This document shows positions 157-11,009 of a DNA stretch of 32,000 nucleotides, piece after piece. How positions within the stretch are numbered: the first letter of the stretch is position 1; every line of letters starts with the position of its first letter. The stretch covers positions 2,070,001-2,102,000 of the forward strand of contig NZ_CP011304.1 of NCBI RefSeq assembly GCF_000981785.2, given 5' to 3'. Source of the DNA: Microcystis aeruginosa NIES-2549. GTDB lineage: Bacteria > Cyanobacteriota > Cyanobacteriia > Cyanobacteriales > Microcystaceae. The translations under genes were made by a program, and so were the position numbers. The notes below the pieces were generated by a model. The model saw only the letters and a program-made list of their open reading frames with translations, was not told where the DNA came from and searched no databases.

Positions 157-2592
157 ATGCGGATTTCGATCAACTGGTTACGAGAATTAGTCAAAATTGT
201 CCAATCTCCCCAAGAATTAGCCGAATTATTGACAATTGCGGGAATAGAAGTGGAAGAGATCGAGGATCGCCGAGAATGGGCAAAGGGTGTGGTTATTGGT
301 AAAATTATCGATCGCCAACCCCATCCCAACGCAGATAAATTAAGTGTCTGTCAGGTGGATATCGGTCAGGAAAACCCTAGTACAATTGTCTGTGGTGCGC
401 CCAATGCTAGGGCTGATATTCTAGTTCCCGTGGCTACTTTGGGAACTCATTTACCAAAAATCAATTTAACGATTAAACCGGCTAAATTGCGGGGGGTAAA
501 ATCGGAAGGGATGATCTGTTCCCTCGCAGAATTAGGATTAACTAAGGATTCTGAAGGAATCCACATTTTTAGTCAGGAAAATCTCCCTTTAGGTACAGAT
601 GTTCGTCCCCTTTTAGGACTCGATGAGGTGATTTTAGATATTTCTCCCACCGCTAACCGTGCCGATGCTTTGAGTATGATCGGAGTTGCGCGAGAAGTGG
701 CGGCTTTGACAGGAGGAGAATTAAGCCTACCAAAAGTGAAATTAGGGGAATTTTCCCCTAAAAAAGATTTAACGCTGGAAATATCAGAAAATACAGCCTG
801 TCCTGCTTATATTGGTACGGTGATCGAGGGGGTAAAAATTGGCCCATCTCCGCTATGGTTGCAACAGCGTTTACAGGCAGCCGGACTGCGATCGATCAAT
901 AATGTGGTCGATATTACTAATTATGTCCTCTTGGAGTGGGGACAACCTTTACACGCTTTCGATCGCGATCGTTTACAAAGTTTTGCCGGAGGTAAATCCG
1001 TTACTATTGGGGTCCGTTTTGCCGAGGAAGGGGAAAAAATTATTAGCCTTGATGGTCAGGAAAGAAGCTTAAAAGAGCTTAATTTGTTAATTACTGCCAA
1101 TAATAAGCCGGTAGCTTTAGCGGGGGTGATGGGAGGTCAAGATACGGAAGTTAACGAGGAAACCGTTAATCTTGTGCTAGAGTCGGCTTTATTCGATCCG
1201 ATCGCTATCCGTCGTTCCTCAAAAGCGCAGGGTTTACGCAGCGAATCTTCTGGACGCTATGAACGCGGTGTTAATCCCGCCGCTTTGGAATATGCTTGTC
1301 AAAGGGCGATCGATTTAATTCTAGAGTTAGCTGGGGGAACTGTCAGCAGTCAGGTTAAAGCTGATTATCGTGCCGATCAGTCCAGTCGTTTGATCGAATT
1401 GCGTTTAGAACGTTTGCAGCAGCTACTGGGTCAAGTTACCCTAGATAATGGTGCGATCGGTGAAATTCTCGCCGAAGATGTGGAACGGATTTTAGGCAAT
1501 TTAGGCTGTGAATTGCAGTTAACCTCGAAAAATCCTGTTCTGTGGACTGTGACAGTGCCAGACTACCGTTATCGGGATTTAGAACGAGAAATTGACTTAA
1601 TTGAAGAAGTGGCGCGACTGTACGGATATGATCGCTTTGTCGATACTTTGCCAGCAAAAACCGCAGCCGGAGGATTATCCTTTGAGGAAACTATACAGCG
1701 TCGGGTACGGGAAGCTTTTCGCGCAGTGGGTTTGACGGAATTAGTCCAGTATTCCCTAGTTAAACCGGAATTAGCGGAAGTTGTCCTCGCTAATCCCCTT
1801 TTTGTCGAGTATTCTGCTTTGCGGACTAATCTCCTCGACGGTTTAATCGAAGCGTTTGAGTATAATCAGTCTCAGGGTAACGGTTCCTTAAATGGCTTCG
1901 AGATCGGGCGAGTTTTCCGCTCAGAATCGGATAATATCAACGAATACGATGCGATTGCTGGCATTTTTGGCGGTGATTTCTTCCCGGCCGGACGTTGGCT
2001 GCGATCGGGTAAAGAGGTGGCCATGACTTGGTATGAAGCAAAAGGCATTTTAGAAGCAGTATTCGATCGCCTTTCGCTGACAGTAAGCTACGAAAAATAT
2101 GCCGAAGATGCGCGTTTTCATCCCGGACGAACAGCCTCTTTATGGATTGGTAAACAACGACTAGGAATTTTTGGTCAACTACACCCGCAATTGCGTCAGC
2201 AAAAGGGATTAATTGAGGCAGTTTATGCCTTTGAAATCCGGTTCCCGATCCTGTTAGCAACTCTTAGCGATAGTGCCAAAATTACCCCGCGTTTACAGGT
2301 CTATTCTACCTATCCGGGGGCAGCACGAGATATCGCCTTCTTTGTTTCTACAGATATACCCGTAGATAGATTGACAAAAACTATCAAAAATGCTGGGGGA
2401 ACTCTTTTAGAAAAAGTCGAATTATTCGATCGCTATCAGGGGCAGAATGTGCCAGAAAATCATTGTAGTTTGGCCTTTAGTTTAGTCTATCGTGCCAGCG
2501 ATCGAACTTTAACCGATGAAGATGTGGAACCCTTAATGACAAAAGTGCGAGAAGCTTTAGTTAAACAGTTCCAAGTTTCTTTAAGAAGTTAA
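157..2592 (+). CDS. pheT: Phenylalanine--tRNA ligase beta subunit
   Basis: 811-aa ORF. It has the N-terminal tRNA-binding (OB) start '[12 protein letters not shown]', B3/4 and B5 regions, and a C-terminal ferredoxin-fold anticodon-binding tail ('FDRYQG...[20 protein letters not shown]'), all typical of bacterial PheT. Confidence 0.95.
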
Positions 2593-2757
2593 ATTCAGCG
2601 ATCAATTATCAGTTATCAGACATCGACTTTATATTATCTCAAGAATAATCTCACACATCGCTATCAATATCGCTGATTGCCTCTAATTGTTACCAATCAG
2701 TTTAAGAGGTTGGAATGGTTCTTTTTTAGACTCGATCTCCTCTAAGAAATATTACAA

Positions 2758-4107
2758 TCAATCGCTTTTGATATACGCTTTAAAAATAGATGATAATTGA
2801 AATCGGTTTTGCTCCCTTTGAATTAAATAACGTTGTTGCAAGGATTGTAAACCATTGATTAAATCACTAGCAGATAAATCTAGGTTATTTTTTAACTCCT
2901 CTCTAGATAAAGGTTGATTAACTTTACTTAATTCTAAGGCGATTTGTTGGGCAAGGGGAGAACAGCGACCAAAAATTTGTTTTAAATGAGACTGCATTTT
3001 TTTAGTAATAACTAAGCTATTTTCTGCCAAGAAATCATTAACCTTGCCATCAAAAACATCTTTAATCAAAACGGCAATATCAGTTAAATAAAAAGGATTA
3101 CCTTCGTATAATTGAATTAATTCTAACCATCTTTCCCCATCTTGTAAACCTTTATTTTCAAGAAAATCAATCGCTTCAAATCCTGATAATTCTAAGCATT
3201 GAATAGGAGAATTTTCTTGATTAAGATAGTTCATTTCCGCCGATTTTTCTTGACTAATGAGAATAAAATGGCTCTGGTGTTGGATTTCTGCAATCAGTTT
3301 TAAAAAATGTTGATAACTACTATATTCAGGTTGATAATTACCCGCCATTTGACCAACAGCAAAAAGATTTTGAAAATCATCTAAGACGATTAAACATTTA
3401 TGATTGCTTAGAACTTCTAACAATTGCTGGATTTTATTATCGGTGCTTTCTTTCGGTTCTTTTTGGCAAGTATTCAATAAATCATTTAGCCATAAATCTA
3501 AAGACTTAGGAAATTTTAAACTTTTCCAAATCACCACTTCAAATTGTTCTAAATTGAGATCAATAAATCGTTTAACTAGGGTGGTTTTTCCTATTCCCCA
3601 TAATCCCAAAACGGCAATTAAGCGAGTATTTTGCTTAAACACCCAGTTCGAGATTGTTGCCAGTTCATTTTCTCGATCATAAAAGTCAATAATTTGGGGA
3701 GCAAGGGTTAGATCATGATAGATTGATTCAGATTGAGAGTTATTATTACTATTTAAGTCATTTTCGTTATACAATCTTGTATTTTCTGTAGGACAAAGAT
3801 TATTATTATTGCCATTAATACTATAAATATTAGAATTTTTTAATGATTTAATATACACTCTTTCTAAGACAGAACGGGAAGTAGATTTTTTTATATCTTT
3901 TTCTAAAACCTCTGATAAAAGCTTCCATAATTTAGCACCTTCCTCTCTAATATGAGTCTCACTGCGGTGATATTCGTTACCTATTTCTTGATAACTCTGT
4001 CCTTGCCAACTCCCTTCAAAAATAGCCTTCTGGATAGTATTTAGCGGCTTTTTATCTCGCTCAATAAGGCGTTCGTCAATCAGTTGTAAGACTTCCGTGA
4101 TATTCAT
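2758..4107 (-). CDS. STAND NTPase of the NB-ARC/APAF type: N-terminal HTH-like module, no C-terminal repeat sensor
   Basis: 449-aa ORF. Walker A 'GLWGIGKTTLVKRF', Walker B 'CLIVLDDFQN', an 'ILISQ' hhhTTR-like motif and an 'EGNPFYL' GxP motif. The N-terminal ~80 aa ('LNTIQKAIFEGSWQGQSYQEIGNEYHRSETHIREEGAKLWKLLSEVL') resemble the sigma70-r4/LuxR-like HTH module common at N-termini of cyanobacterial STAND proteins. An Asn-rich low-complexity linker follows. There is no WD40 or TPR tail. Confidence 0.75.
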   Translation of the reverse strand: MNITEVLQLIDERLIERDKKPLNTIQKAIFEGSWQGQSYQEIGNEYHRSETHIREEGAKLWKLLSEVLEKDIKKSTSRSVLERVYIKSLKNSNIYSINGNNNNLCPTENTRLYNENDLNSNNNSQSESIYHDLTLAPQIIDFYDRENELATISNWVFKQNTRLIAVLGLWGIGKTTLVKRFIDLNLEQFEVVIWKSLKFPKSLDLWLNDLLNTCQKEPKESTDNKIQQLLEVLSNHKCLIVLDDFQNLFAVGQMAGNYQPEYSSYQHFLKLIAEIQHQSHFILISQEKSAEMNYLNQENSPIQCLELSGFEAIDFLENKGLQDGERWLELIQLYEGNPFYLTDIAVLIKDVFDGKVNDFLAENSLVITKKMQSHLKQIFGRCSPLAQQIALELSKVNQPLSREELKNNLDLSASDLINGLQSLQQRYLIQREQNRFQLSSIFKAYIKSD

Positions 4108-4353
4108 ACAATCGACACAGCAAAAGACTTTTGGGTATTATAGCCCAACTAAATCCCACTTTTTCCAATTTTCAGAAAAATTTACCCGACAAAACTCCCG
4201 ATAAAATCCGATGTTTAGGGGTTGTCACTTTTTGGAAGCGTTTGGCATGATGGAATGTAGTTAAGCAAAACAGACCTAAAACTAACCACATCTAACTCAG
4301 CGACGCTAGTTCTAAGTATTATTGCTTATGTCTCAGTTTAACGTAGGTATTTT
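4108..4353. promoter_or_regulatory. Divergent intergenic region between the STAND gene and the plus-strand island genes
   Basis: 246-bp non-coding gap between head-to-head genes, so it must carry at least the STAND gene promoter. I could not assign -35/-10 boxes with confidence. Confidence 0.3.
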
Positions 4354-4539
4354 ATGACGAAGTTCGTTTTAGACAAATATGCGCTCGATTCTAAAAAATC
4401 AGAAGCTAAGGCAAAAATCGTCGGTTCATTGGGTTCAAATGCCTCAATTTCAGGGGATCAGATAGAAGTCCCCAGTTATGACGCGAGTAAAGTGGTTCAG
4501 ATTTTAAGTCAAGTTGGTATCAAGTATTCGGGGGGGTAG
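4354..4539 (+). CDS. Hypothetical 61-aa protein ending in Gly-Gly
   Basis: ATG-initiated ORF in the island. The C-terminus is '...IKYSGG' followed by a stop. The last codons lie in a G7 homopolymer (4530-4536). I recognise no family. Confidence 0.4.
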   Translation: MTKFVLDKYALDSKKSEAKAKIVGSLGSNASISGDQIEVPSYDASKVVQILSQVGIKYSGG

Positions 4540-4664
4540 ATTCAAATGTCGGACATTGTTAATCACTCAAAAATATCAATGTAGCAGATCAAAACTGAAT
4601 CTGTCGTAAAGTTTACGATGCACAATCCAAGATAATTTTTACTCAACCCTAAATAATATTAGTC

Positions 4665-5021
4665 ATGAAAAGCAAAACAAAAAAACTAACTATGGTTTTT
4701 ATTTTGACAACCATTATATTCAATTCTCAAATTTTATTACAACCAAAAATTTCTAATGCGCAAACAGCTACTAAAAGGTTGTGTTGGGATGCGTATTATT
4801 CATATCTAAACACTAATGTTGGCGACGGATATATTGTTAGTAGTTCTACTCAAAAAGCAACTTATATGAATATGGTTTTTAGATGTGCAGAAAATTATCT
4901 AAATATGGTAGAGAAGGATTCTCGATACTGTCGTGAGGCCTTAGAATACGCTAACATGATATTACCTAACTTAGCAACAGTATTAGCATCACAAATTATC
5001 TTTAAATGTACAAATCGTTAA
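4665..5021 (+). CDS. Small secreted Cys-containing protein (hypothetical)
   Basis: 118-aa ORF with a Sec-type signal peptide ('MKSKTKKLTMVFILTTIIFNSQILLQPKISNA|QT'). The mature part of ~85 aa has 4 Cys. It lies 16 bp upstream of the next gene. Confidence 0.55.
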   Translation: MKSKTKKLTMVFILTTIIFNSQILLQPKISNAQTATKRLCWDAYYSYLNTNVGDGYIVSSSTQKATYMNMVFRCAENYLNMVEKDSRYCREALEYANMILPNLATVLASQIIFKCTNR

Positions 5022-5037
5022 CAAGGGAATCTCGAAC

Positions 5038-6507
5038 GTGCTTCAGAAATTTAAGAAACGTGTAAGTAAATTATCGCTATTCATCATATTATTACTATTT
5101 CAGATAGTTAGTTTTACAACAACAGTCAATGGAACTAGAATTTTACTAGGCCATTTAGACCTATTAGGAATAGGCTCATTCAAATTTCCAGCTTATCTTT
5201 TTTTTGGATTAGGCATTCAGCTATTTATATTGTGGCTTTTTTTATTGGGTGAACACGCACTAAGATCACGTTTTACCTTATGGTTATTAGTTTTTGTTTA
5301 TACATTGCTCAGTATCTATACAAGCTTTTTCTCTCTTTACGAAGGCATTAGTCGAGAAAAATTATCAGAAACAACTTCTGCTATAAAACAGAGTGAGGAA
5401 ATCGTGAGACTTATCCAAGCTAATAAAAAATATCAAGATCAGAATAATCGCTACTCGGAACTTGAAGAGGAGATAAAAAATGCAGAAGAAGACAGAACAG
5501 ATATCTGTAAAAGAGAATTCGGCGGATTCTACGGTTGTGAAGATGATCCACGAAAAATCGCAATTGACAACAAGATAAGTACACTCAAACAGGAAAGGGG
5601 GAAGTTAGCGGGGAAAGTTAAGACGTTTAATGATTTTCTTAAAAATAAAGGAGAAAACTTTGGCAAATGGACAGCCGAAAAAATTTATCTAGAAAATGGA
5701 AAGGTTATATCACTTTTCTCTGAAGAAATTCCCCAAAATACTCGAGAGGAGCTAGAAAAACAAGCAGGAACGCAAAATTTCTTTTTATTACCTTTTGTAA
5801 AACTGCTGGAAGGAGATAAGAATGCAATCTTTGCTGTTTTTATTGCCTCTATACTAGACTGTACATCAGTTTTAATCGGACTTAATCCAGAAACAATTAA
5901 GAGAGATAGATTTAGAACCGTTATAAATGCTCTTATTTTGGTAAAAAATAAAACAACTCTGGGAATAAGAAATTTCTTACCCCATCTAATCGAAGTTACT
6001 GGTCATACAATATCTACTATTGTTCGTTCTATTGCTGGACTCCCTAATGGAATTATATATGGTGTACTTGCAGGACTTCAAAGAACTTTTCAGATTTTTA
6101 TCCGTACAAATAACACCTTTACAATTCGAGGAAGAAGACAAGATTTTTTAGAAAATTTATGGGATAGTATTGATCATTTTAGAATTGGTTCTATCAATAG
6201 TCAAGATCATCAAGGTCATGTAATAAATTGTAAAAAACTGATGTTATCTTCTCAAGATAATCAGTCATTTAAACGTGGATATGAAAAAATTCTTAATAGA
6301 ATGGAAAGGTTAGAATGGGTTCAAAGAATTAGACACAGTAATGACACCAAATTTGAAATTCTAGAGTATGAGAAATTTGAGCAATGGTATTTAAAAGAGC
6401 ATAACAAAAGATTCGATCAAGAAAGACACGATATGTCAGGAGTTAATACTTTTAAAACAGTTATCTATCTCCCTCCAATTTCTCGTAAAAAAACAAACAA
6501 AAACTAA
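5038..6507 (+). CDS. Polytopic membrane protein with a central coiled coil (hypothetical)
   Basis: 489-aa ORF with a GTG start. There are three N-terminal hydrophobic helices (about aa 12-30, 50-72, 78-100). A charged heptad-rich segment follows (about aa 105-200, 'KKYQDQNNRYSELEEEIKNAEEDR'). Two further hydrophobic segments are 'IFAVFIASILDCTSVLIGL' and 'IAGLPNGIIYGVLAGL'. The C-terminal domain is basic. Confidence 0.65.
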   Translation: MLQKFKKRVSKLSLFIILLLFQIVSFTTTVNGTRILLGHLDLLGIGSFKFPAYLFFGLGIQLFILWLFLLGEHALRSRFTLWLLVFVYTLLSIYTSFFSLYEGISREKLSETTSAIKQSEEIVRLIQANKKYQDQNNRYSELEEEIKNAEEDRTDICKREFGGFYGCEDDPRKIAIDNKISTLKQERGKLAGKVKTFNDFLKNKGENFGKWTAEKIYLENGKVISLFSEEIPQNTREELEKQAGTQNFFLLPFVKLLEGDKNAIFAVFIASILDCTSVLIGLNPETIKRDRFRTVINALILVKNKTTLGIRNFLPHLIEVTGHTISTIVRSIAGLPNGIIYGVLAGLQRTFQIFIRTNNTFTIRGRRQDFLENLWDSIDHFRIGSINSQDHQGHVINCKKLMLSSQDNQSFKRGYEKILNRMERLEWVQRIRHSNDTKFEILEYEKFEQWYLKEHNKRFDQERHDMSGVNTFKTVIYLPPISRKKTNKN

Positions 6508-6539
6508 ATTTTAAAATTAAGTTCCAAAAGAGGTTTACC

Positions 6540-7631
6540 ATGAAAATGCAAGAAAGAGAATGTTCTAATCAAGGCGAGACTCTAGGCATGGGGTTTGATT
6601 CCTTAAAAAATATTCTCTTACCCAATAGTGCTATAGATTTGAGTAATGTTAATGAAGATAGCATACAATCTGAACAAGTTCCCGTGGAAGAGTCTTGTTC
6701 TTTTGCTCATATAGAAAATGAGGCTATGCTATCAAAGTCATTAAGCCTTTCTGCAAACATTGATTTTAAAATTGGAGGTGAGGGATCTGGACTGGACATT
6801 CCATGTATTTTATCTGCAAGTGCAAAAGGAGGTTATTTTAGAAGTGTAGAAATGAAAGAAAATAATTTATATATTCTGCTCAACTATCAGTTGAAGAATA
6901 CTGCTTACAGAATTACGCACCCCAAGTTATCGGCTGAAGCAGAAAATATTCTATCTAATTCTTCTGATTTTTTGGAGTTCAGGAAAAAATTTGGAGATGA
7001 ATTTATTATTGGTTTTAGAACAGGTGTTGAATACACTGCATGGATAGAAGTGTTAGATATAAAAAATAATGAAAAAGAGAAAACATATTTGAAAATTAAT
7101 TCAGCAGTATCTGAATTATTAGCATTATTAGGAATACCCACCCAACCAATTGATGGCAATCTTCAAAATGATTCAGAACAGACTCTCAAAAACTATTCTA
7201 GTAGAACTTTATGTTTCAAGAGACCTCCGAATATAAATGAAAGTGGTGTGATTTTAACTCTAGATCGGTTAATTTTTGACTTTATAGATTTTAGAAAACA
7301 AATTTCGAGTTCGAGTAAAAAGCATTATAAATATACTGCGGTTTTTGCAGATTATGATCAATTAGTTGAAGTCCGTCATGATATTTTAACACCAGAACTA
7401 AAACGCCTTAAATCTAAACTAAACCGATTGAGAGGTATCAAAATACAAAAGCAAATTCAATTGTTAGGAATACAAAATCAATTAAGATTTCAAGGACAAG
7501 ACCTTGAATTAAATGAGCAGCTTAGAAAATTATATAATTATGTTTATGAGTTAGATGATTTTATGAACGAGTGTTTATTTCTTCCAGACTCTATGACTGA
7601 TGAAAGATATAAACTATACCTAAATTCATAG
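6540..7631 (+). CDS. Cytoplasmic protein with MACPF/perforin-like motifs and a C-terminal coiled coil (putative pore-forming effector)
   Basis: 363-aa ORF with an AGAGG RBS 8 nt upstream and no signal peptide. 'TLGMGFDSL' matches the LGxG[YF]D first-strand motif of MACPF domains. 'DFLEFRKKFGDEFIIGFRTGVEY' aligns with the [YF]GTH[FY]x6GG signature region in degenerate form. The domain call is inference from motifs only. Confidence 0.6.
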   Translation: MKMQERECSNQGETLGMGFDSLKNILLPNSAIDLSNVNEDSIQSEQVPVEESCSFAHIENEAMLSKSLSLSANIDFKIGGEGSGLDIPCILSASAKGGYFRSVEMKENNLYILLNYQLKNTAYRITHPKLSAEAENILSNSSDFLEFRKKFGDEFIIGFRTGVEYTAWIEVLDIKNNEKEKTYLKINSAVSELLALLGIPTQPIDGNLQNDSEQTLKNYSSRTLCFKRPPNINESGVILTLDRLIFDFIDFRKQISSSSKKHYKYTAVFADYDQLVEVRHDILTPELKRLKSKLNRLRGIKIQKQIQLLGIQNQLRFQGQDLELNEQLRKLYNYVYELDDFMNECLFLPDSMTDERYKLYLNS

Positions 7632-7666
7632 ACCTGTAAAGTGAGTACTAATCTTGTAGCACAATC

Positions 7667-7720
7667 GCTTTTCTTATCGGGTGCATTATACTTTGTTAAT
7701 GCACCTTATTTGTTGTCTAT
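7667..7720. repeat. Hairpin repeat family A, copy 1 (hairpin flipped)
   Basis: 'cgcttttcttatcGGGTGCATTAtactttgtTAATGCACCttatttgttgtctat'. The flanks match copies at 8555-8610 and 10582-10638. The 8-nt loop is the exact reverse complement of the loop in copy 3. Confidence 0.85.
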
Positions 7721-7813
7721 AATTTAAAAGATTGAGATAAGGGCAGTTTGTTGGGTTGATTTTGCGTTAAAATTAAGTTAGATATGTCTTAATTAATAAA
7801 ACTTAGCAAGACA

Positions 7814-8053
7814 ATGAATACTTCGATTACTTTTCAAGAAATTGCCGCCGAAATTCAATTATTTGATAATATTGAACAAAAAGAACAATTTATTTTTGTA
7901 GTGGGTGCTTTAGTTTCTCGCATCATCAGTCTTCATAAAGCCGCAGAAATCATGGAAATGGATACAGAAATGTTCTTGAAAATTTTAGAATTAATGGGAA
8001 TCGATTTTTCTTATCTTACTACAGAAGACATAGATAGAGAAAAAAAATGGTAA
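7814..8053 (+). CDS. UPF0175-family antitoxin-like protein
   Basis: 79 aa. 'ISLHKAAEIMEMDTEMFLKILELMGIDFSYLTTEDIDRE' matches the UPF0175 HTH core. It overlaps the downstream DUF3368 gene by 7 nt. Confidence 0.8.
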   Translation: MNTSITFQEIAAEIQLFDNIEQKEQFIFVVGALVSRIISLHKAAEIMEMDTEMFLKILELMGIDFSYLTTEDIDREKKW

Positions 8054-8523
8054 TCTCTATGAAAATTGTTTTCAATTCTTCCCCTTTAATCTTTTTGTCT
8101 CAGTTAGGATTTTTAGAAAGATACCTAGATTCTAATGATAATTTTTATTTGCCTGCAACCGTACAACAAGAAATTAATGCCAAACAAGATCAATCTTCAG
8201 AGACTCTTAATAAGCTGATCAATCAACAGAAATTAATTATCCTAAATATTAAATTAATCTCTCTAGCAAATAGTTTAAATGAACGTTTAGGAAAAGGTGA
8301 ATCTGATGCCATTACTTTAGGAATAGAATTACAAGATGACTTTGCAGCAAGAAAAGAAGCACTACACTTAGGCTTAAATGTTAAAGGAACTTTAGCGATT
8401 ATTCGTAAACTTCTCAAAGAAGGAAAGATAGAAATTGAAAATTTGGAGAGTTTTTATCAAAGACTTAGAGAAATTAACTTTAGAGTCAAGCGTGAGATAT
8501 TTGAGAGCATTTTTGGAGACTGA
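8047..8523 (+). CDS. DUF3368-family PIN-like nuclease (putative toxin)
   Basis: 158 aa. 'VFNSSPLIFLSQLGFLE', 'LGKGESDAITLGIEL..DDFAARKEALHLGLNVKGTLAIIRKLLKEG' and 'INFRV' are typical of DUF3368, the usual partner of UPF0175. An alternative start is Met5 at 8059. Confidence 0.8.
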   Translation: MVISMKIVFNSSPLIFLSQLGFLERYLDSNDNFYLPATVQQEINAKQDQSSETLNKLINQQKLIILNIKLISLANSLNERLGKGESDAITLGIELQDDFAARKEALHLGLNVKGTLAIIRKLLKEGKIEIENLESFYQRLREINFRVKREIFESIFGD

Positions 8524-8554
8524 GTGTGATACTGAAGGCACTGCGTAGCAGCAC

Positions 8555-8610
8555 GCTTATTTTGTCGGGTGCATTAACAGAGTATAATGCGCCTTATTTC
8601 TTGTTATTGA
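8555..8610. repeat. Hairpin repeat family A, copy 2
   Basis: 'gcttattttgtcGGGTGCATTAacagagtaTAATGCGCCttatttcttgttattga'. It overlaps the stop codon of the minus-strand 60-aa ORF. Confidence 0.8.
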
Positions 8611-8776
8611 TGGATTCCCACCATAACTTTAAATCACTTTCATTAATCTTTTTTTGAAGATATTCAATCTGATCTGAATAGCTGAGATTTTTCATGTCTT
8701 CAGCCATTTTTTCTTGACTGGTTTGTTTAAAAGCTAAACAGTCAAAACTTTTTTTAATTGTCGTTGGCTTCATCAA
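8594..8776 (-). CDS. Small hypothetical protein, third gene of the DUF433/PIN operon
   Basis: 60-aa ORF overlapping the 3' end of the PIN gene by 23 nt. 'FDCLAFKQTSQEKMAEDMKNLSYSDQIEYLQKK' resembles small proteins often seen next to cyanobacterial TA genes. The support is weak. Confidence 0.4.
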   Translation of the reverse strand: MMKPTTIKKSFDCLAFKQTSQEKMAEDMKNLSYSDQIEYLQKKINESDLKLWWESINNKK

Positions 8777-9227
8777 TTGTTACCTCTAAAGGAGAAATAA
8801 TAGTCAAAATCCCGTAGCCATTAAGTAAATTAATTTGATTATAGCCTTTCATTTTATCTAGGCGCACAATATGTTTAAAATTCCATGATATGATTGCATC
8901 CGCTCTAGCTATTGTAGCAGCCGCTACATGAGTAGCATCATTAATAGACTTTGATGTAACAACTCCTTCATTGATATAAGCATCCCTTAACTGTAAAACT
9001 TCAGGTGTTATCTTAACTACTTCAATAACTCTCTGCGGAATCGATAATAAAATATCTTTAACCGCTTGGGGGGCATTAATTAATTCGCTAACAATGATAT
9101 CACTCATTAACAAAATAAACTTTTCTTGCTTAATGGCTTCCATCAATTGATTGGACTCTAAGGAAAATTCATCATCTAAACAGCCTCCAATGACTGATGT
9201 ATCGATATAAATTCTAAGTTGTTTCAT
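8754..9227 (-). CDS. PIN-domain protein (VapC-like toxin)
   Basis: 157 aa. 'IYIDTSVIGG' supplies the first acidic residue. 'INDATHVAAATIARADAIISWNFKH' is a typical PIN C-terminal motif. Confidence 0.8.
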   Translation of the reverse strand: MKQLRIYIDTSVIGGCLDDEFSLESNQLMEAIKQEKFILLMSDIIVSELINAPQAVKDILLSIPQRVIEVVKITPEVLQLRDAYINEGVVTSKSINDATHVAAATIARADAIISWNFKHIVRLDKMKGYNQINLLNGYGILTIISPLEVTIDEANDN

Positions 9228-9242
9228 AACGATTTTAGCTCG

Positions 9243-9545
9243 TCAATTTAATATTTTCTCAATTAAAGATGGTTTGTTGCCTTGTAGTTGTTTAGCAAAA
9301 GTTTCTCCTGCTTCAAGTTGTCGTCTAATTTCTTCTCGATTGTCATGGTAATAGGCCAAGGCCGCATAAACATCTGCTAGGGTGATAGTAGGATGATGAT
9401 AAATAATTTCATCTGGTGACATTCCCATTCTTTCATGCCAAATTACAATATCTTGAACTTTAATTCGATGTCCAGCAATACGAGGTTTTCCGCCACAGAT
9501 ACCAGAAGTGATTTCAATATGTTGTGAGATAACTAAAGATGACAT
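9243..9545 (-). CDS. DUF433-domain protein (antitoxin-like)
   Basis: 100 aa. 'ICGGKPRIAGHRIKVQDIVIWHERMGMSPDEIIYHHPTITLADVYAALAYYHDNREEI' is the DUF433 signature. It sits 15 bp upstream of the PIN gene. Confidence 0.85.
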   Translation of the reverse strand: MSSLVISQHIEITSGICGGKPRIAGHRIKVQDIVIWHERMGMSPDEIIYHHPTITLADVYAALAYYHDNREEIRRQLEAGETFAKQLQGNKPSLIEKILN

Positions 9546-9611
9546 AATTACTTGCCAATAAGATCAATCAATCCTTGTTATTATACCATTTTTTCCCAGT
9601 AAGGCAACATC

Positions 9612-9670
9612 AGTGCGATCGCCGATATTGTAGGTTGGGTTGAGGCACGAAACCCAACAGGATCAACTAT
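9612..9670 (+). repeat. HIP1-headed 60-bp hairpin repeat, copy 1
   Basis: 'aGTGCGATCGCCgatattgtagGTTGGGTTgaggcacgAAACCCAACaggatcaactat'. A second copy lies 139 bp downstream. Confidence 0.85.
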
Positions 9671-9750
9671 AGCAATTCTCTAACTTATGAGGTACAGTAG
9701 CAACAGTGAGTAAACCAATTGCGAATATATTTTTGAGTAACTTGTAACAT

Positions 9751-9810
9751 AGTGCGATCGCCGATTTGGTAGATTGGGTTGAGGCACGAAACCCAACATG
9801 ATCAACTATT
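9751..9810 (+). repeat. HIP1-headed 60-bp hairpin repeat, copy 2
   Basis: Near-identical to 9612-9670, with a few substitutions, in the same orientation. Confidence 0.85.
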
Positions 9811-9815
9811 AATTT

Positions 9816-9922
9816 ATACTAAATTCGGTTATTAAAAACTGATTATTTATTCCCCCTTTTGCCTCTTGCCTTCTGCCTCTTGCCTCTCCTGATATGTAGC
9901 ATATACTCAACGGATTTAGTAT
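9816..9922 (+). mobile_element. MITE family 1 (~107 bp), copy 1
   Basis: Imperfect terminal inverted repeats 'ATACTAAATTCGGTT...CAACGGATTTAGTAT' and a CT-rich core 'ttgcctcttgccttctgcctcttgcctctcc'. By eye it is identical to 16164-16270; identity extends over about 111 bp including 2 flanking nt on each side. Confidence 0.8.
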
Positions 9923-10095
9923 TATTTGGTTGGTGTTGGGTTGCACTTTGTTTAACTACATTTTGGCAATAAAGAGGCGATTAGGGTTGATAAACGGCGA
10001 ACGCTAATCTTGTAAGCTTTAAAAAGTGCTATATAAAAAACTAAACAAACTATAATTAAAATTACTGCAAAAATTTAGAGAGTAAAGAAGGAAAT

Positions 10096-10350
10096 ATGAC
10101 AGAAATAGTTTTTTTAGTGGAAGATGCACCGGAAGGGGGATATACAGCAAGGGCATTAGGCGAGTCTATTTTTACCGAAGCCGATGATTTACAATCTTTA
10201 CGAGAAATGGTAAAAAATGCCGTTAATTGTCATTATGATGATAGGGAAAATCGCCCTAAAATTATTCGTTTACATATTGTTAGAGTGATTAATTTTTACT
10301 TTTTTCAAATAATGCTTCGTCAATTAGAAAATCAAGTTTTCCAGCTATGA
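10096..10350 (+). pseudogene. HicB-like (UPF0150) antitoxin, 3'-truncated
   Basis: 'MTEIVFLVEDAPEGGYTARALGESIFTEADDLQSLREMVKNAVNCHYDDRENRPKIIRLHIV' is a typical HicB-like N-domain. After about 10275 the frame runs into the antisense of a convergent gene remnant and loses similarity. No HicA is nearby. Confidence 0.55.
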
Positions 10351-10474
10351 AATCTTCCTCAATTTGTTTTTCCCATTGTTGATCGTCTAACTTATTGATC
10401 CAATTTCTTAAATACAAAAATTAATCAGAAGTAAGGCTTTCAATTTTTGCTTGAATTAATTGTAACTTTGTCAT
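10289..10474 (-). pseudogene. Small TA-associated-type gene with an in-frame TAA stop
   Basis: The minus-strand frame reads 'MTKLQLIQAKIESLTSD*FLYLRNWINKLDDQQWEKQIEEDFIAGKLDFLIDEALFEKSKN*'. It is one continuous frame interrupted at codon 18. Confidence 0.5.
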
Positions 10475-10581
10475 CTTAGTATCTTTCCACAACAATAGTT
10501 CAAATTTGAGTTTTATATTATCATTTTTTCTGTAAAAATGGGAATTTGCGATCACATTTGGCAGAATATTGGAAGTGTGAT

Positions 10582-10638
10582 CGCTCTTATTATCGGCTGC
10601 ATTAACAAAGTATAATGCACTTTATTTGTTGTCTATTG
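10582..10638. repeat. Hairpin repeat family A, copy 3
   Basis: 'cgctcttattatcGGCTGCATTAacaaagtaTAATGCACTttatttgttgtctattga'. Confidence 0.85.
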
Positions 10639-11009
10639 ACGAATTCAATAAACATAAGATAAAATACTGTTGATACTCGTAACCATTAAAGAGAGATATG
10701 AACATCAATTCTATTCAAGATAACTCTTTACTCTTTAAGAAACCCGTTTTCTCTCTCGATCCTACGGTTTTCTGAGTTCCTCGTACTGTTCACTACGGTT
10801 CTTCCGAACTTACACTGTAGAAAATTCCGCAAGCTCCCTCTCCGTCCAGCAATGCTCTAAAGTTGATATAGCAGTTTTCATCAGAATGAGGTATGGGCAA
10901 GGGGCTTAAACCCTTTGTTGGCAAAACTTGTCGATACCTCAGTAACGTGAAAAGCGCTATAATGAAACCTACTCCCTTGATGAAGTGTTGAGAGAAATAG
11001 AATAACCTT

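Follow-up and report, generated by a model that had tools for sequence, protein, structure and literature searches.

A leaderless MACPF-superfamily protein encoded with a membrane-protein partner behind a STAND NTPase in Microcystis: a candidate membrane-attack module

The last gene of a small cassette of Microcystis aeruginosa NIES-2549 codes for a protein that profile searches and a predicted structure place together in the MACPF (perforin) superfamily. It was studied within a window of 32,000 nucleotides, to which all positions refer (Table 1). The gene is obligatorily linked to that of a multi-pass membrane protein, and the pair is one of several cargoes found behind a conserved core, made of a STAND NTPase and of a small protein ending in YSGG. 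Because the pair is an interchangeable cargo of this core, we interpret the cassette as a regulated conflict system. That it is a cell-autonomous, two-component membrane-attack module, with a conjectural function as suicide or conflict effector, seems to us to have about an even chance of being right. In animals, complement and cytotoxic lymphocytes kill by means of MACPF proteins, while to our knowledge bacterial MACPFs have been met only as secreted toxins or as proteins without an assigned role. A relative of perforin may thus be a means by which bacteria eliminate their own cells when these are infected or stressed.

Table 1. Features of the cassette and of its MACPF-superfamily protein, with positions in the window
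Feature	Position	Strand	Evidence
STAND NTPase, 449 aa, core component	2758..4107	-	Pfam, PADLOC, alignment
Divergent intergenic region, putative control region, between STAND gene and operon	4108..4353	.	six-locus alignment
Core component, 61-aa protein always ending in YSGG, its gene opening the + strand operon	4354..4539	+	
118-aa protein with a signal peptide and 4 Cys, optional, encoded between the YSGG-protein and partner genes	4665..5021	+	
489-aa multi-pass membrane protein, obligate partner	5038..6507	+	linkage, topology, alignment
MACPF-superfamily protein (candidate by sequence and model), 363 aa, last gene of the cassette	6540..7631	+	ORF, homologues, profiles, AF2, Foldseek
TLGMGFDSL, aa 14-22, counterpart of the LGxG[YF]D motif in the N-terminal strand of MACPF domains	6579..6605	+	alignments
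Predicted first membrane-inserting region TMH1/CH1, aa 58-109, between core strands 1 and 2	6711..6866	+	model, amphipathicity
FRKKFGDEFIIGFRTGVEY, aa 147-165, degenerate MACPF signature	6978..7034	+	superfamily alignment, profile alignment
Predicted second membrane-inserting region TMH2/CH2, aa 172-220, between core strands 3 and 4	7053..7199	+	model, amphipathicity
Predicted C-terminal alpha-helical hairpin, aa 285-361, the 'heptad-rich tail'	7392..7622	+	model, profile matches
Terminator-like hairpin, 10-bp stem and T-rich tail	7679..7706	+	pattern match only

A MACPF protein recognized through its relatives

An earlier note, made from the letters of this DNA, had singled out the reading frame for three collinear motifs of MACPF type and for its lack of a signal peptide. 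Both observations stand. The frame begins with ATG, carries the three motifs, and none of the 14 members of its close family displays an N-terminal hydrophobic segment or signal peptide. No 19-residue window of the protein reaches the hydropathy of a transmembrane helix (maximum 1.06), and in 94 relatives the median number of residues that precede the first MACPF strand is 12. A Shine-Dalgarno-like box, AAGAGG, lies 6 nt upstream of the initiation codon, so that 'leaderless' here refers to the missing signal peptide and not to a leaderless mRNA. The terminator-like hairpin, a pattern match, is located 48 nt downstream of the stop codon. The gene itself is unannotated, its product being a hypothetical protein in many Microcystis genomes.

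Taken alone, the protein matches no MACPF model in Pfam (E <= 1), NCBIfam, PADLOC or PDB sequence searches; its 14-member family, compared with Pfam, NCBIfam and PDB sequences, gives nothing, or just noise (uL3, NuoB). The profile of this family retrieved 767 relatives. Twelve of the 94 that were sampled match the Pfam MACPF family PF01823 (best E 1.9e-9) and one matches Thiol_cytolysin. PF01823, the family that the earlier note had named for a check, is therefore matched by relatives and not by the protein itself, and membership in the family is best described as transitive, since it is reached through them. Used against the PDB, the 94-sequence profile matches MACPF pore-formers of known structure, with E-values of 1.7e-21 for Aeg-L (9uj0), 1.7e-5 for TgPLP1, 6.6e-5 for stonustoxin alpha and 1.7e-4 for Mpf2Ba1. 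Bridging sequences, P0027, P0031 and P0036 among them, match the family profile at 1e-19 to 1e-26 and Aeg-L, in pairwise comparison, at 1e-8 to 1e-11. Aligned by hhalign with the Aeg-L fragment alone, the close family is collinear with it at a level that is not significant (E 0.016, probability 2.8%). In many members of the clade the C-terminal part comprises extra domains, of the PASTA, lectin, LGFP, LRR or beta/gamma-crystallin types. Searching phage genomes by tblastn with the MACPF protein produced no match, and a similar search of plasmids a single one, a distant hypothetical protein of Bacillus thuringiensis.

Structure prediction leads to the same superfamily. The AlphaFold2 model computed from the 94-sequence alignment (pLDDT 86.4, pTM 0.83) replaced a first prediction that used 14 sequences (pLDDT 59), with which MACPF/CDC structures already ranked first. 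Compared with the PDB by Foldseek, the best 50 of its 206 matches are all MACPF/CDC proteins (stonustoxin at 2.3e-8), with a probability of 1.00 for at least 30 such structures. TM-scores are low (0.3-0.42), as is usual with the flexible MACPF fold. Among viral models, giant-virus MACPFs were the only matches. Strands predicted at residues 48-57, 110-124, 154-171 and 221-228 form the bent, four-stranded antiparallel sheet which, with its two helical clusters, the earlier note had anticipated. The structures of cholesterol-dependent cytolysins match the model through the shared core only: where domain 4 of these toxins (PF01289) would stand we find an alpha-helical hairpin, and the protein has no Thiol_cytolysin match. 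It could still be argued that there is no relationship with MACPF at all, the motifs being due to chance and the fold being an artefact of prediction, and the want of any direct Pfam, NCBIfam or PDB sequence match for the protein and its 14-member family, together with the non-significant hhalign comparison, speaks in that direction. However, sequence bridging and structure prediction are independent and they converge, and even the shallow model already pointed to MACPF/CDC. We regard this explanation as effectively refuted, and extremely improbable.

The motifs themselves deserve some attention, because their degeneracy is not what it seemed to be. TLGMGFDSL does correspond to the LGxG[YF]D strand, as had been proposed, at residues 14-22 and not 13-21: in the 94-sequence profile it is aligned with YLGAGYD of TgPLP1 and GQGYN of Aeg-L, and its glycines are found in 88 (G16) and 93 (G18) of the 94 sequences. 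The third motif, LSNSSDFLEFRKKFGDEFIIGFRTGVEY (aa 138-165), contains the signature proper, FRKKFGDEFIIGFRTGVEY, aligned with YGDRFIADFIKGGHFYA of Aeg-L and FGTHFLVRLFAGGKMT of TgPLP1. Here the protein reads F-G-D-E-F-x6-G-V where the canonical pattern is [YW]-G-[TS]-H-[FY]-x6-G-G. The signature is degenerate, as claimed, yet GDE is not peculiar to this protein: most of the clade, to which the fungal Aeg-L belongs, has G-D (D153 in 78 of 94), and the clade consensus is [YFC]-G-D-x-F-x6-G-G, a variant shared with Aeg-L. F147 and G152 are present in all 94 sequences and G162 in 93; position 163, the second glycine of the GG pair, is G in 83 of 94, and the window protein is the sole case with V. 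Among its closest relatives (14-member alignment) this second hinge glycine is A or V, while G18, D20, S21, F147, K150, G152, D153, E154, F155, G158, F159 and T161 are invariant. The literal PF01823 signature is thus lost, T/S-H and the second G having been replaced, yet to judge from the alignments its structural positions, with the spacing and the first glycines, are conserved. The valine at the second hinge position could mean that pore formation is altered or lost.

The second motif, SKSLSLS...AKGG (aa 65-98), falls where the earlier note had placed it, inside the insert between core strands 1 and 2 that would make the first membrane-inserting region. This region comprises an alternating arm, SLSLSANIDFKI, a Gly-rich turn and a second arm, LDIPCILSASA; in the model it is flanked by strands 48-57 and 110-124 and runs through helices 61-70 and 95-100, around a tip (74-93) of low confidence. 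Residues 65-80, inside this motif, have the strongest beta-amphipathic moment of the whole protein. The second region, between strands 154-171 and 221-228, is modelled as helices 176-196 and 212-217; it is less regular than the first, although its KTYLKINSAVS segment is among the top beta-amphipathic windows. Both predicted regions have the canonical MACPF length of about 50 residues. The compact core extends approximately from residue 1 to residue 275, a small size, as the earlier note had remarked, but normal in the stonustoxin/Aeg-L-like branch. Beyond it the heptad-rich tail is real and starts at residue 287, in helices modelled at 285-318, 322-347 and 354-361 with pLDDT 89-97; it is no add-on, being a conserved part of the clade, and the profile matches of distant relatives often extend to position ~342. 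In 79 of the 94 relatives more than 60 further residues follow, in the subfamily of the window none. According to the model, then, the protein has no membrane-binding accessory domain and ends with its helical hairpin.

An obligate membrane partner and exchangeable cargoes behind a conserved core

Immediately upstream, and ending 32 nt before the start codon of the MACPF gene, is the gene of the partner. A gene for a protein of ~490 aa occupies this place in every locus with enough flanking sequence, in Microcystis and in other cyanobacteria. At one locus (L007) the linkage is kept while the STAND and small genes are absent within the available flank. The partner is predicted to begin with three TM helices, to continue with a coiled coil of ~150 aa and one or more additional TM helices, and to close with a soluble domain. 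No family in Pfam, PDB or PADLOC matches it, apart from a weak DUF4407 signal (one of six members at E 0.052; hhalign E 0.0013, probability 19%). The gaps within the last three genes of the operon are of 16 and 32 nt. The first of these three, coding for the 118-aa signal-peptide protein, is optional: it is present at L028-L031, L033 and L035, absent at L032, L034 and in all non-Microcystis cassettes, and its product has no significant family match.

The STAND gene is divergently transcribed from this operon, and its linkage to the MACPF and partner genes is conserved in most loci. Its product starts with an HTH, continues with a P-loop module of NB-ARC/NACHT type and ends with a winged-helix-like region, no repeat sensor domain being detected in its 449 residues. 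Walker A (GIGKTT) and Walker B (LIVLDD) are both intact. It matches Pfam NB-ARC (5.9e-8), NACHT (7.1e-8) and ATPase_2 (1e-8), as well as the phage-defence candidate PDC-S27 of PADLOC (4.4e-10), and its orthologues carry PF26355, HTH_VMAP-M9. In the intergenic region, blocks reading ACAAAAC ... AAATCnGnT are conserved across distant loci (invariant blocks in a six-locus alignment), and promoter-like hexamers are seen on both strands.

The second component of the core, the YSGG protein, makes 56 clusters, mostly of Microcystis, and its gene accompanies a STAND gene in all cases, irrespective of cargo. In the first four loci that were compared (window, L001, L003 and L005) it is 56-80% identical, and more conserved than either the MACPF or the membrane protein. 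Its sequence reads, to our eye, as a beta-alpha-beta-beta-alpha-beta succession; UniRef labels one member HMA-like; a PDB profile search came back empty. A ubiquitin-like nature was considered and found unsupported, the cassette having no E1, E2 or JAB gene. An operon of E1/E2/JAB-like type does lie beside a distant MACPF relative (L025), but it is convergent and unrelated in sequence, and we take it as a coincidental neighbour in a defence island.

Cargo swapping is directly visible when loci are compared. Other cargoes behind the same core consist of TerB with an IetA-like AAA protein (PADLOC 1.1e-32) and two small proteins, of three small proteins with an AAA protein, or of a DUF4407 membrane protein. 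At L011 and L014 the STANDs are 92% identical and the small proteins identical, but the cargo differs. The window and M. aeruginosa NIES-843 likewise have different cargoes at the same locus (pheT 98%, STAND 91%), and L032 shows the same cassette at another place in the chromosome. The cassette belongs to a low-GC island (30-33% vs ~45%) packed with toxin-antitoxin pairs; libraries of defence systems recognize neither the MACPF protein nor its partner.

Proposed mechanism and competing explanations

How might such a cassette operate? What follows on pores, on the membrane attacked, on the part played by the partner, on the trigger and on how switch and cargo are coupled is inferred. The STAND switch would release a lethal cargo, leading to abortive infection or programmed cell death. 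Coupling would be achieved most simply by transcriptional induction of the operon, not by a cargo-specific protein contact, because near-identical cores drive unrelated cargoes and the STAND protein has a DNA-binding HTH. Coupling of NLR and effector through an amyloid motif of the BASS/HET-s type was dropped, the N-terminus of STAND being an HTH; separately, no shared short motif of this type is seen by eye in the MACPF, partner, YSGG and STAND alignments. Once made, the MACPF protein would oligomerize on the inner face of the cytoplasmic or thylakoid membrane of its own cell, with the membrane protein supplying docking or gating, as do aegerolysins, C2 domains or CDC domain 4 elsewhere; the two ~50-residue regions (aa 58-109 and 172-220) would then refold into amphipathic beta-hairpins and perforate that membrane. 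The earlier note's suggestion of an intracellular, suicide-type pore-former is consistent with the gene context, and keeps its character of a suggestion. In its most complete form, that of a true perforin/MACPF homologue acting as a cyanobacterial executioner, released by STAND with its YSGG partner, docked by the membrane protein and aborting infection by perforating the producer's own membrane from the inside, the proposal is tentative, and we rate it at somewhat less than an even chance.

The main rival reading makes the protein a toxin directed against grazers, amoebae or competing bacteria, with the HTH-STAND as a mere transcriptional regulator of the operon. Lacking a classical signal peptide, the toxin would leave the cell through lysis, in vesicles or by partner-aided export. 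Stonustoxin and Aeg-L, the nearest relatives of known structure, lack a leader and yet act on foreign cells, outside their producer; the C-terminal domains of many clade members suggest binding to external surfaces, and PASTA, lectin and LGFP domains imply extracellular targets for part of the clade, all of which counts against the module. A relative is carried by a Bacillus thuringiensis plasmid, and a STAND protein with an N-terminal HTH, divergently transcribed, resembles classic regulators. However, the Microcystis subfamily has no target-binding domain, the cargoes that replace the pair (TerB/IetA-like AAA, DUF4407) are not export toxins, the upstream membrane protein bears no transporter signature and no secretion-system genes were found near the cassette. 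We consider such a toxin unlikely. It may also be that the MACPF fold has ceased to form pores and, with its partner, fulfils a non-lytic role in membrane remodelling, scaffolding or signalling. The degenerate hinge (G-V in the window protein, G-A in relatives), the replacement of the canonical T/S-H by D-E, the presence of astrotactin-2, a non-lytic MACPF, among the structural matches, and the low confidence of the TMH1 tip would all fit. Against this, the two insertion regions keep their canonical length, the alternation of hydrophobic and polar residues in TMH1 is clean on both arms around the Gly-rich turn, the G-D that replaces G-T-H is shared with Aeg-L, the pore structure of which has been solved (9uj0), and the core machinery has been under purifying selection, to judge from how strongly the family conserves the motifs. 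Loss of pore formation appears to us quite improbable.

Should the module operate as proposed, the perforin family would join the immune modules common to bacteria and eukaryotes (gasdermin, TIR, cGAS/STING, NLR and caspase-like proteases are others) in the form of a leaderless MACPF wired to an NLR-like ATPase. It would be a bacterial counterpart, possibly an evolutionary antecedent, of perforin/MAC immunity, in parallel with what gasdermins are for pyroptosis; no MACPF is known so far that inserts from the cytoplasmic side. This raises the mechanistic question of how an integral partner could help a giant beta-barrel pore to assemble on the inner side of a membrane. A hypothetical protein of many Microcystis genomes gains a name, and a clade emerges that counts more than 700 representative clusters, most of them leaderless, and that Pfam largely misses. 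Microcystis being a bloom former, the dynamics of its lysis are ecologically important. Finally, the compact STAND and YSGG core may be used as a lead to further effectors.

Comparison with known systems

Stonustoxin and Aeg-L (the Alternaria 'Aegerolysin-L', 9uj0) are respectively the best structural and the best sequence match. They share with the Microcystis protein a compact core of ~265-275 residues, placed at the very N-terminus with no signal peptide ahead of it and an alpha-helical region behind it, as well as the LGxG[YF]D strand and the [YF]-G-D-x-F-I..G..(T/K)-G-G variant of the signature. They differ in being eukaryotic toxins for foreign cells, whose membrane-binding modules are their own (PRYSPRY and thioredoxin-like domains) or recruited (the aegerolysin partner Aeg-S), whereas the Microcystis protein ends at its helical hairpin, has an integral membrane partner and a valine in its hinge, and belongs to a STAND cassette. 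In aegerolysin and MACPF pore-formers a separately encoded partner defines the membrane site. Pleurotolysin A/B, whose PlyB appears among both profile and Foldseek matches, is in this respect a functional analogue, a MACPF without a membrane-binding domain of its own that uses a separate partner; but that partner is a soluble lipid-binding beta-sandwich and not a multi-pass protein with a coiled coil, and the Microcystis partnership is proposed from strict gene linkage only. Plu-MACPF (2qp2), BT_3439 of Bacteroides (3kk7) and BSAP-1 have the superfamily fold in common with it, but they act extracellularly, are made with a signal peptide or a lipoprotein signal, and have beta-rich binding domains at the C-terminus.

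On the side of the switch, the cassette resembles STAND/NLR-like conflict systems, those of the HTH_VMAP-M9 type (Kaur et al., 2020; PMC7159879) and Avs/bNACHT, in its NB-ARC/NACHT module with intact Walker motifs, its variable effectors and its cyanobacterial enrichment. As in Avs/bNACHT, a STAND protein with an intact P-loop is genetically linked to a candidate effector. Its own STAND is minimal in comparison, being deprived of the C-terminal TPR/WD40/LRR sensor of Avs/bNACHT, of a fused effector and of a vWA-MoxR pair. The invariant YSGG protein is undescribed in such systems, a MACPF effector is mentioned in neither of the STAND/VMAP conflict-system papers (Kaur et al., 2020, PMC7159879; Avs/bNACHT), and our literature search for MACPFs, whether in connection with phage defence, STAND/VMAP systems or Microcystis, returned no report.

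[quoted passage not shown] Gasdermins differ in fold, none being found among the best 50 of the 206 Foldseek matches, and the cassette holds neither a protease or other known activator gene nor an evident cleavable autoinhibitory domain. What it has in common with gasdermins, Pepco and EACC1 is an organization, that of leaderless proteins encoded beside a sensor or activator in cyanobacterial and actinobacterial defence islands, and a proposed logic, which would be to kill from within.

Motifs, fold and family of the protein

The MACPF gene begins with an ATG, and an AAGAGG ribosome-binding box lies 6 nt 5′ of it. What the earlier note saw in its 363-residue product is confirmed: a Ser/Gly-rich alternating stretch occupies residues 65-98, LSNSSDFLEFRKKFGDEFIIGFRTGVEY is found at residues 138-165, and a heptad-like tail begins at residue 287. 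TLGMGFDSL is there as well, at residues 14-22, one residue away from its supposed place (13-21). The absence of a signal peptide also stands, as a hydrophobic N-terminal segment is missing from the protein and from all 13 close homologues, and no 19-residue window reaches the hydropathy of a transmembrane helix. The key motif residues are invariant in this 14-member family and nearly so in a superfamily alignment of 94 sequences (G18 93/94, F147 94/94, G152 94/94, G162 93/94), so that the motifs are not a matter of chance.

The signature, F-G-D-E-F-x6-G-V, had been termed degenerate, and its GTH and GG positions are indeed altered as described. However, the clade consensus reads [YFC]-G-D-x-F-[IV]-x-G-x2-T-G-G-E-[YF]; D is present in 78/94 and GG in 83/94 sequences, and the Alternaria protein Aeg-L (9uj0), the pore structure of which has been solved, likewise has Y-G-D-R-F...G-G. 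G-D replacing G-T-H is therefore a trait of the clade, not decay. The valine at the second signature glycine belongs to the window protein alone among the 94; in the closest relatives this position is A or V.

Taken alone, the protein found no match in sequence searches of Pfam, NCBIfam, PADLOC or PDB, and neither did the 14-member profile in the same kind of sequence-model search. An exhaustive HMM search with that profile retrieved 767 representative proteins at E <= 1e-3 (175 at E <= 1e-10), from which the 94 relatives were sampled. Pfam PF01823 MACPF is matched by 12/94 of these relatives (best 1.9e-9) and Thiol_cytolysin by 1/94. The 94-sequence profile matches the solved MACPF pore-formers Aeg-L (1.7e-21), Toxoplasma PLP1 (1.7e-5), stonustoxin alpha (6.6e-5) and Mpf2Ba1 (1.7e-4). 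Relatives such as P0027, P0031 and P0036 bridge the gap, matching the cyanobacterial family profile at 1e-19 to 1e-26 and Aeg-L, pairwise, at 1e-8 to 1e-11 (159-sequence set).

AlphaFold2, run on the 94-sequence alignment, gave a model of mean pLDDT 86.4 and pTM 0.83, falling below 50 solely at residues 74-93, where the first insertion region has its tip. Foldseek found 34 PDB matches at E <= 1e-3, and the best 50 are all MACPF/CDC proteins: stonustoxin (2.3e-8), pneumolysin, perfringolysin, Aeg-L, BT_3439, perforin, C8, astrotactin-2, TgPLP1, Plu-MACPF, MPEG1, pleurotolysin B and C9 are among them. Against viral models, giant-virus MACPF proteins were the only matches. A shallow first model (pLDDT 59) also ranked this superfamily first. 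The TM-scores are modest (0.3-0.42), as expected from a bent sheet, mobile inserts and differing accessory domains.

As modelled, the protein has two insertion regions of canonical size. TMH1, SLSLSANIDFKI-GGEGSG-LDIPCILSASA, consists of two strictly alternating hydrophobic/polar arms flanking a glycine turn, and the highest beta-amphipathic moment of the whole protein falls there; alternation in TMH2 is less regular. Read strictly, the single protein has neither the literal signature motif nor a direct Pfam match; what it does have is the predicted fold, the insert architecture and transitive homology. Sequence bridging, the AlphaFold2 model and Foldseek are three independent routes that converge, supporting the structural interpretation: we regard membership of the MACPF superfamily as close to certain, and pore formation as likely.

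In the clade, the median distance between the N-terminus and the start of the core is 12 residues, so that all of it counts as leaderless. Accessory regions follow the helical hairpin in 79/94 members, including PASTA, lectin, LGFP, LRR, beta/gamma-crystallin, PLAT and GUN4 domains; the cyanobacterial subfamily ends directly after the hairpin, with no accessory binding domain. In the cyanobacterial P0026 (L021 5450-7174), a leaderless MACPF-like module is fused to a C-terminal GUN4 domain (Pfam 1.2e-30), which binds tetrapyrroles, and there are NB-ARC and HetE-N genes at a distance of a few kb. GUN4 has been listed among conflict-system effector domains (PMC8195603). The distant P0027 (L025; 3763-8382 with its neighbours) sits on a mobilisable element with relaxase and integrase. 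Convergent with it is what seems to be a ubiquitin-like defence operon of bacterial type, encoding a ThiF/E1-like protein, two proteins of ~60 aa, an E2-like protein of 150 aa and a JAB-like one of 316 aa.

Membrane partner, conserved core and exchanged cargo

Features of the window (nucleotides) and of the AlphaFold2 model of the MACPF protein (residues)
Feature	Position	Strand	Remark
pheT	157-2592		98% identity to M. aeruginosa NIES-843 pheT
HTH-NB-ARC STAND ATPase	2758-4107	-	divergent from operon
61-aa (YSGG) protein	4354-4539	+	first gene of operon
118-aa signal-peptide protein	4665-5021	+	second gene of operon, optional
489-aa membrane protein	5038-6507	+	directly upstream of MACPF gene
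MACPF gene	6540-7631	+	last gene of operon
Terminator-like hairpin	7679-7706		
UPF0175	7814-8053		toxin-antitoxin-like, paired with next
DUF3368 PIN-like protein	8047-8523		
157-aa ORF	8754-9227	-	toxin-antitoxin-like, paired with next
100-aa ORF	9243-9545	-	size and order match DUF433 gene of related loci
N-terminal strands, LGxG[YF]D motif	residues 4-30		
Core strand 1	residues 48-57		
TMH1/CH1	residues 58-109		
Core strand 2	residues 110-124		
Two short helices	residues 132-151		run into signature
Core strand 3	residues 154-171		
TMH2/CH2	residues 172-220		
Core strand 4	residues 221-228		
Helix and strand	residues 241-271		
Helical hairpin	residues 285-361		pLDDT about 89-97

The last three genes of the operon are separated by gaps of 16 and 32 nt. 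The cassette lies in an island of 30-33% GC in a genome of about 45%; over ~2700-11000 of the window the GC content is 29-36%, with flanks at about 45%. The island also holds a run of toxin-antitoxin-like pairs, and the identical MACPF protein is present in many Microcystis assemblies. Inserted after the small gene and ahead of that for the membrane protein, the 118-aa ORF encodes a signal peptide and four cysteines; among Microcystis copies of the cassette, L028-L031, L033 and L035 have it and L032 and L034 lack it, despite an identical MACPF protein. It matched no family significantly, its PADLOC matches as Csx21-like (E ~0.006) being probably noise.

In relatives from Microcystis, Richelia, Rivularia, one Prochlorococcaceae MAG and metagenomes, linkage of the MACPF gene to that of a multi-pass membrane protein is strict: in every locus examined a protein of ~480-520 aa is encoded directly 5′ of the MACPF gene, even in L007, where STAND and small gene are both absent within the available flank. 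This partner has three TM helices, a coiled coil of about 150 aa, at least one further TM helix and a soluble C-terminal domain. L018 has a STAND that, along the 147 aa present, is 99% identical to that of the window, and only one cargo protein (1006-2334), a DUF4407 membrane/coiled-coil protein of 443 aa (Pfam 2.4e-11). Faint similarity of this DUF4407 protein to the MACPF partner (hhalign E 0.0013) hints that the latter may derive from a family of membrane-acting effectors.

The conserved core of the cassette is the STAND gene with the 61-62-aa protein, always the first gene opposite it, which ends in an invariant YSGG preceded by K/E. Besides the window it occurs in L001 (6193-6381), L003 (5971-6156), L005 (218-406) and L010-L018; its identity across the first four loci compared (window, L001, L003 and L005), 56-80%, exceeds the conservation of any cargo. 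No relative was found in Pfam or PDB, and one member is tagged 'HMA domain-containing' in UniRef; it is a candidate adaptor, co-sensor or feedback regulator. Between the two genes, at 4108-4353, six divergent loci share the invariant blocks ACAAAAC ... AAATCnGnT, TTTTCC and the -10-like box TATTATAG, where the flanking proteins are only 42-55% identical. The STAND protein's HTH may have its operator in this region.

Behind this core the MACPF protein is one of several cargoes, swapped modularly. Comparison of the window (2758-7631) with L016 and L010-L014 at the same locus shows three sets: TM + MACPF; TerB with an IetA-like AAA ATPase (PADLOC 1.1e-32) and two small proteins; and three small proteins with an IS-disrupted AAA (L016, M. 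aeruginosa NIES-843, AP009552). A DUF4407 membrane protein is a further cargo of the core. Identical copies of the YSGG protein precede different cargoes. The STANDs of L011 and L014 are 92% identical (the first 145 residues entirely so) and their small proteins identical, yet their cargoes differ; the window and NIES-843 have the locus downstream of pheT and the core in common, with a wholly different cargo. In L032 the MACPF cassette is at another chromosomal site. Cargoes can also be stacked, since in the metagenomic L005 (3603-11002) the TM+MACPF pair comes directly before an alternative cargo, the IetA-like AAA with its two small proteins; further downstream are a 444-aa protein, DUF1822 and a CHAT-CHASE2 protease. 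The locus downstream of pheT acts as an effector-swapping hotspot, which could be mined for new effectors.

Possible action and known systems

The MACPF protein and its membrane partner may form a two-component membrane-attack module, in which the partner would do the work of the targeting domain that the MACPF protein lacks, on the model of aegerolysin/pleurotolysin B and of Aeg-S/Aeg-L. The target would be the producer's own membrane, reached from the cytoplasmic side, and release would be governed by the STAND switch. Coupling of STAND and cargo is probably generic. Its simplest model would be transcriptional induction of the operon, because cargoes unrelated to each other share one core, and because the STAND protein has an HTH and faces the conserved divergent promoter region; direct activation at the protein level, via the YSGG protein, may be an alternative. 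The suicide-pore idea of the earlier note gains support from gene context, and to the full suicide or conflict-effector model we give an even chance.

An exported toxin directed against grazers or competitors, its operon under an ordinary regulator, would agree with the leaderless eukaryotic relatives and with the extracellular-type domains of the wider clade; it fits poorly with the missing targeting domain and with exchange of the MACPF cargo for non-toxin ones, and we find it unlikely. A non-lytic MACPF, as the G-V hinge might suggest, is somewhat less probable still, given a cleanly amphipathic TMH1 and the precedent of Aeg-L for the G-D signature. That the protein is no MACPF at all is scarcely credible.

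In the literature searched, no MACPF effector was found for STAND, VMAP or phage-defence systems and no MACPF for Microcystis, an absence that is no proof of the finding being unpublished; a recent preprint likens the barrels of an unrelated effector to MACPF, by analogy only. The fold is known; the minimal architecture, the obligate partner and the regulatory context are new. The nearest known proteins are the stonustoxin/Aeg-L-like MACPFs, compact and leaderless like the window protein, and the nearest functional analogies are two-component aegerolysin/MACPF toxins and the suicide pores of bacterial gasdermin type.
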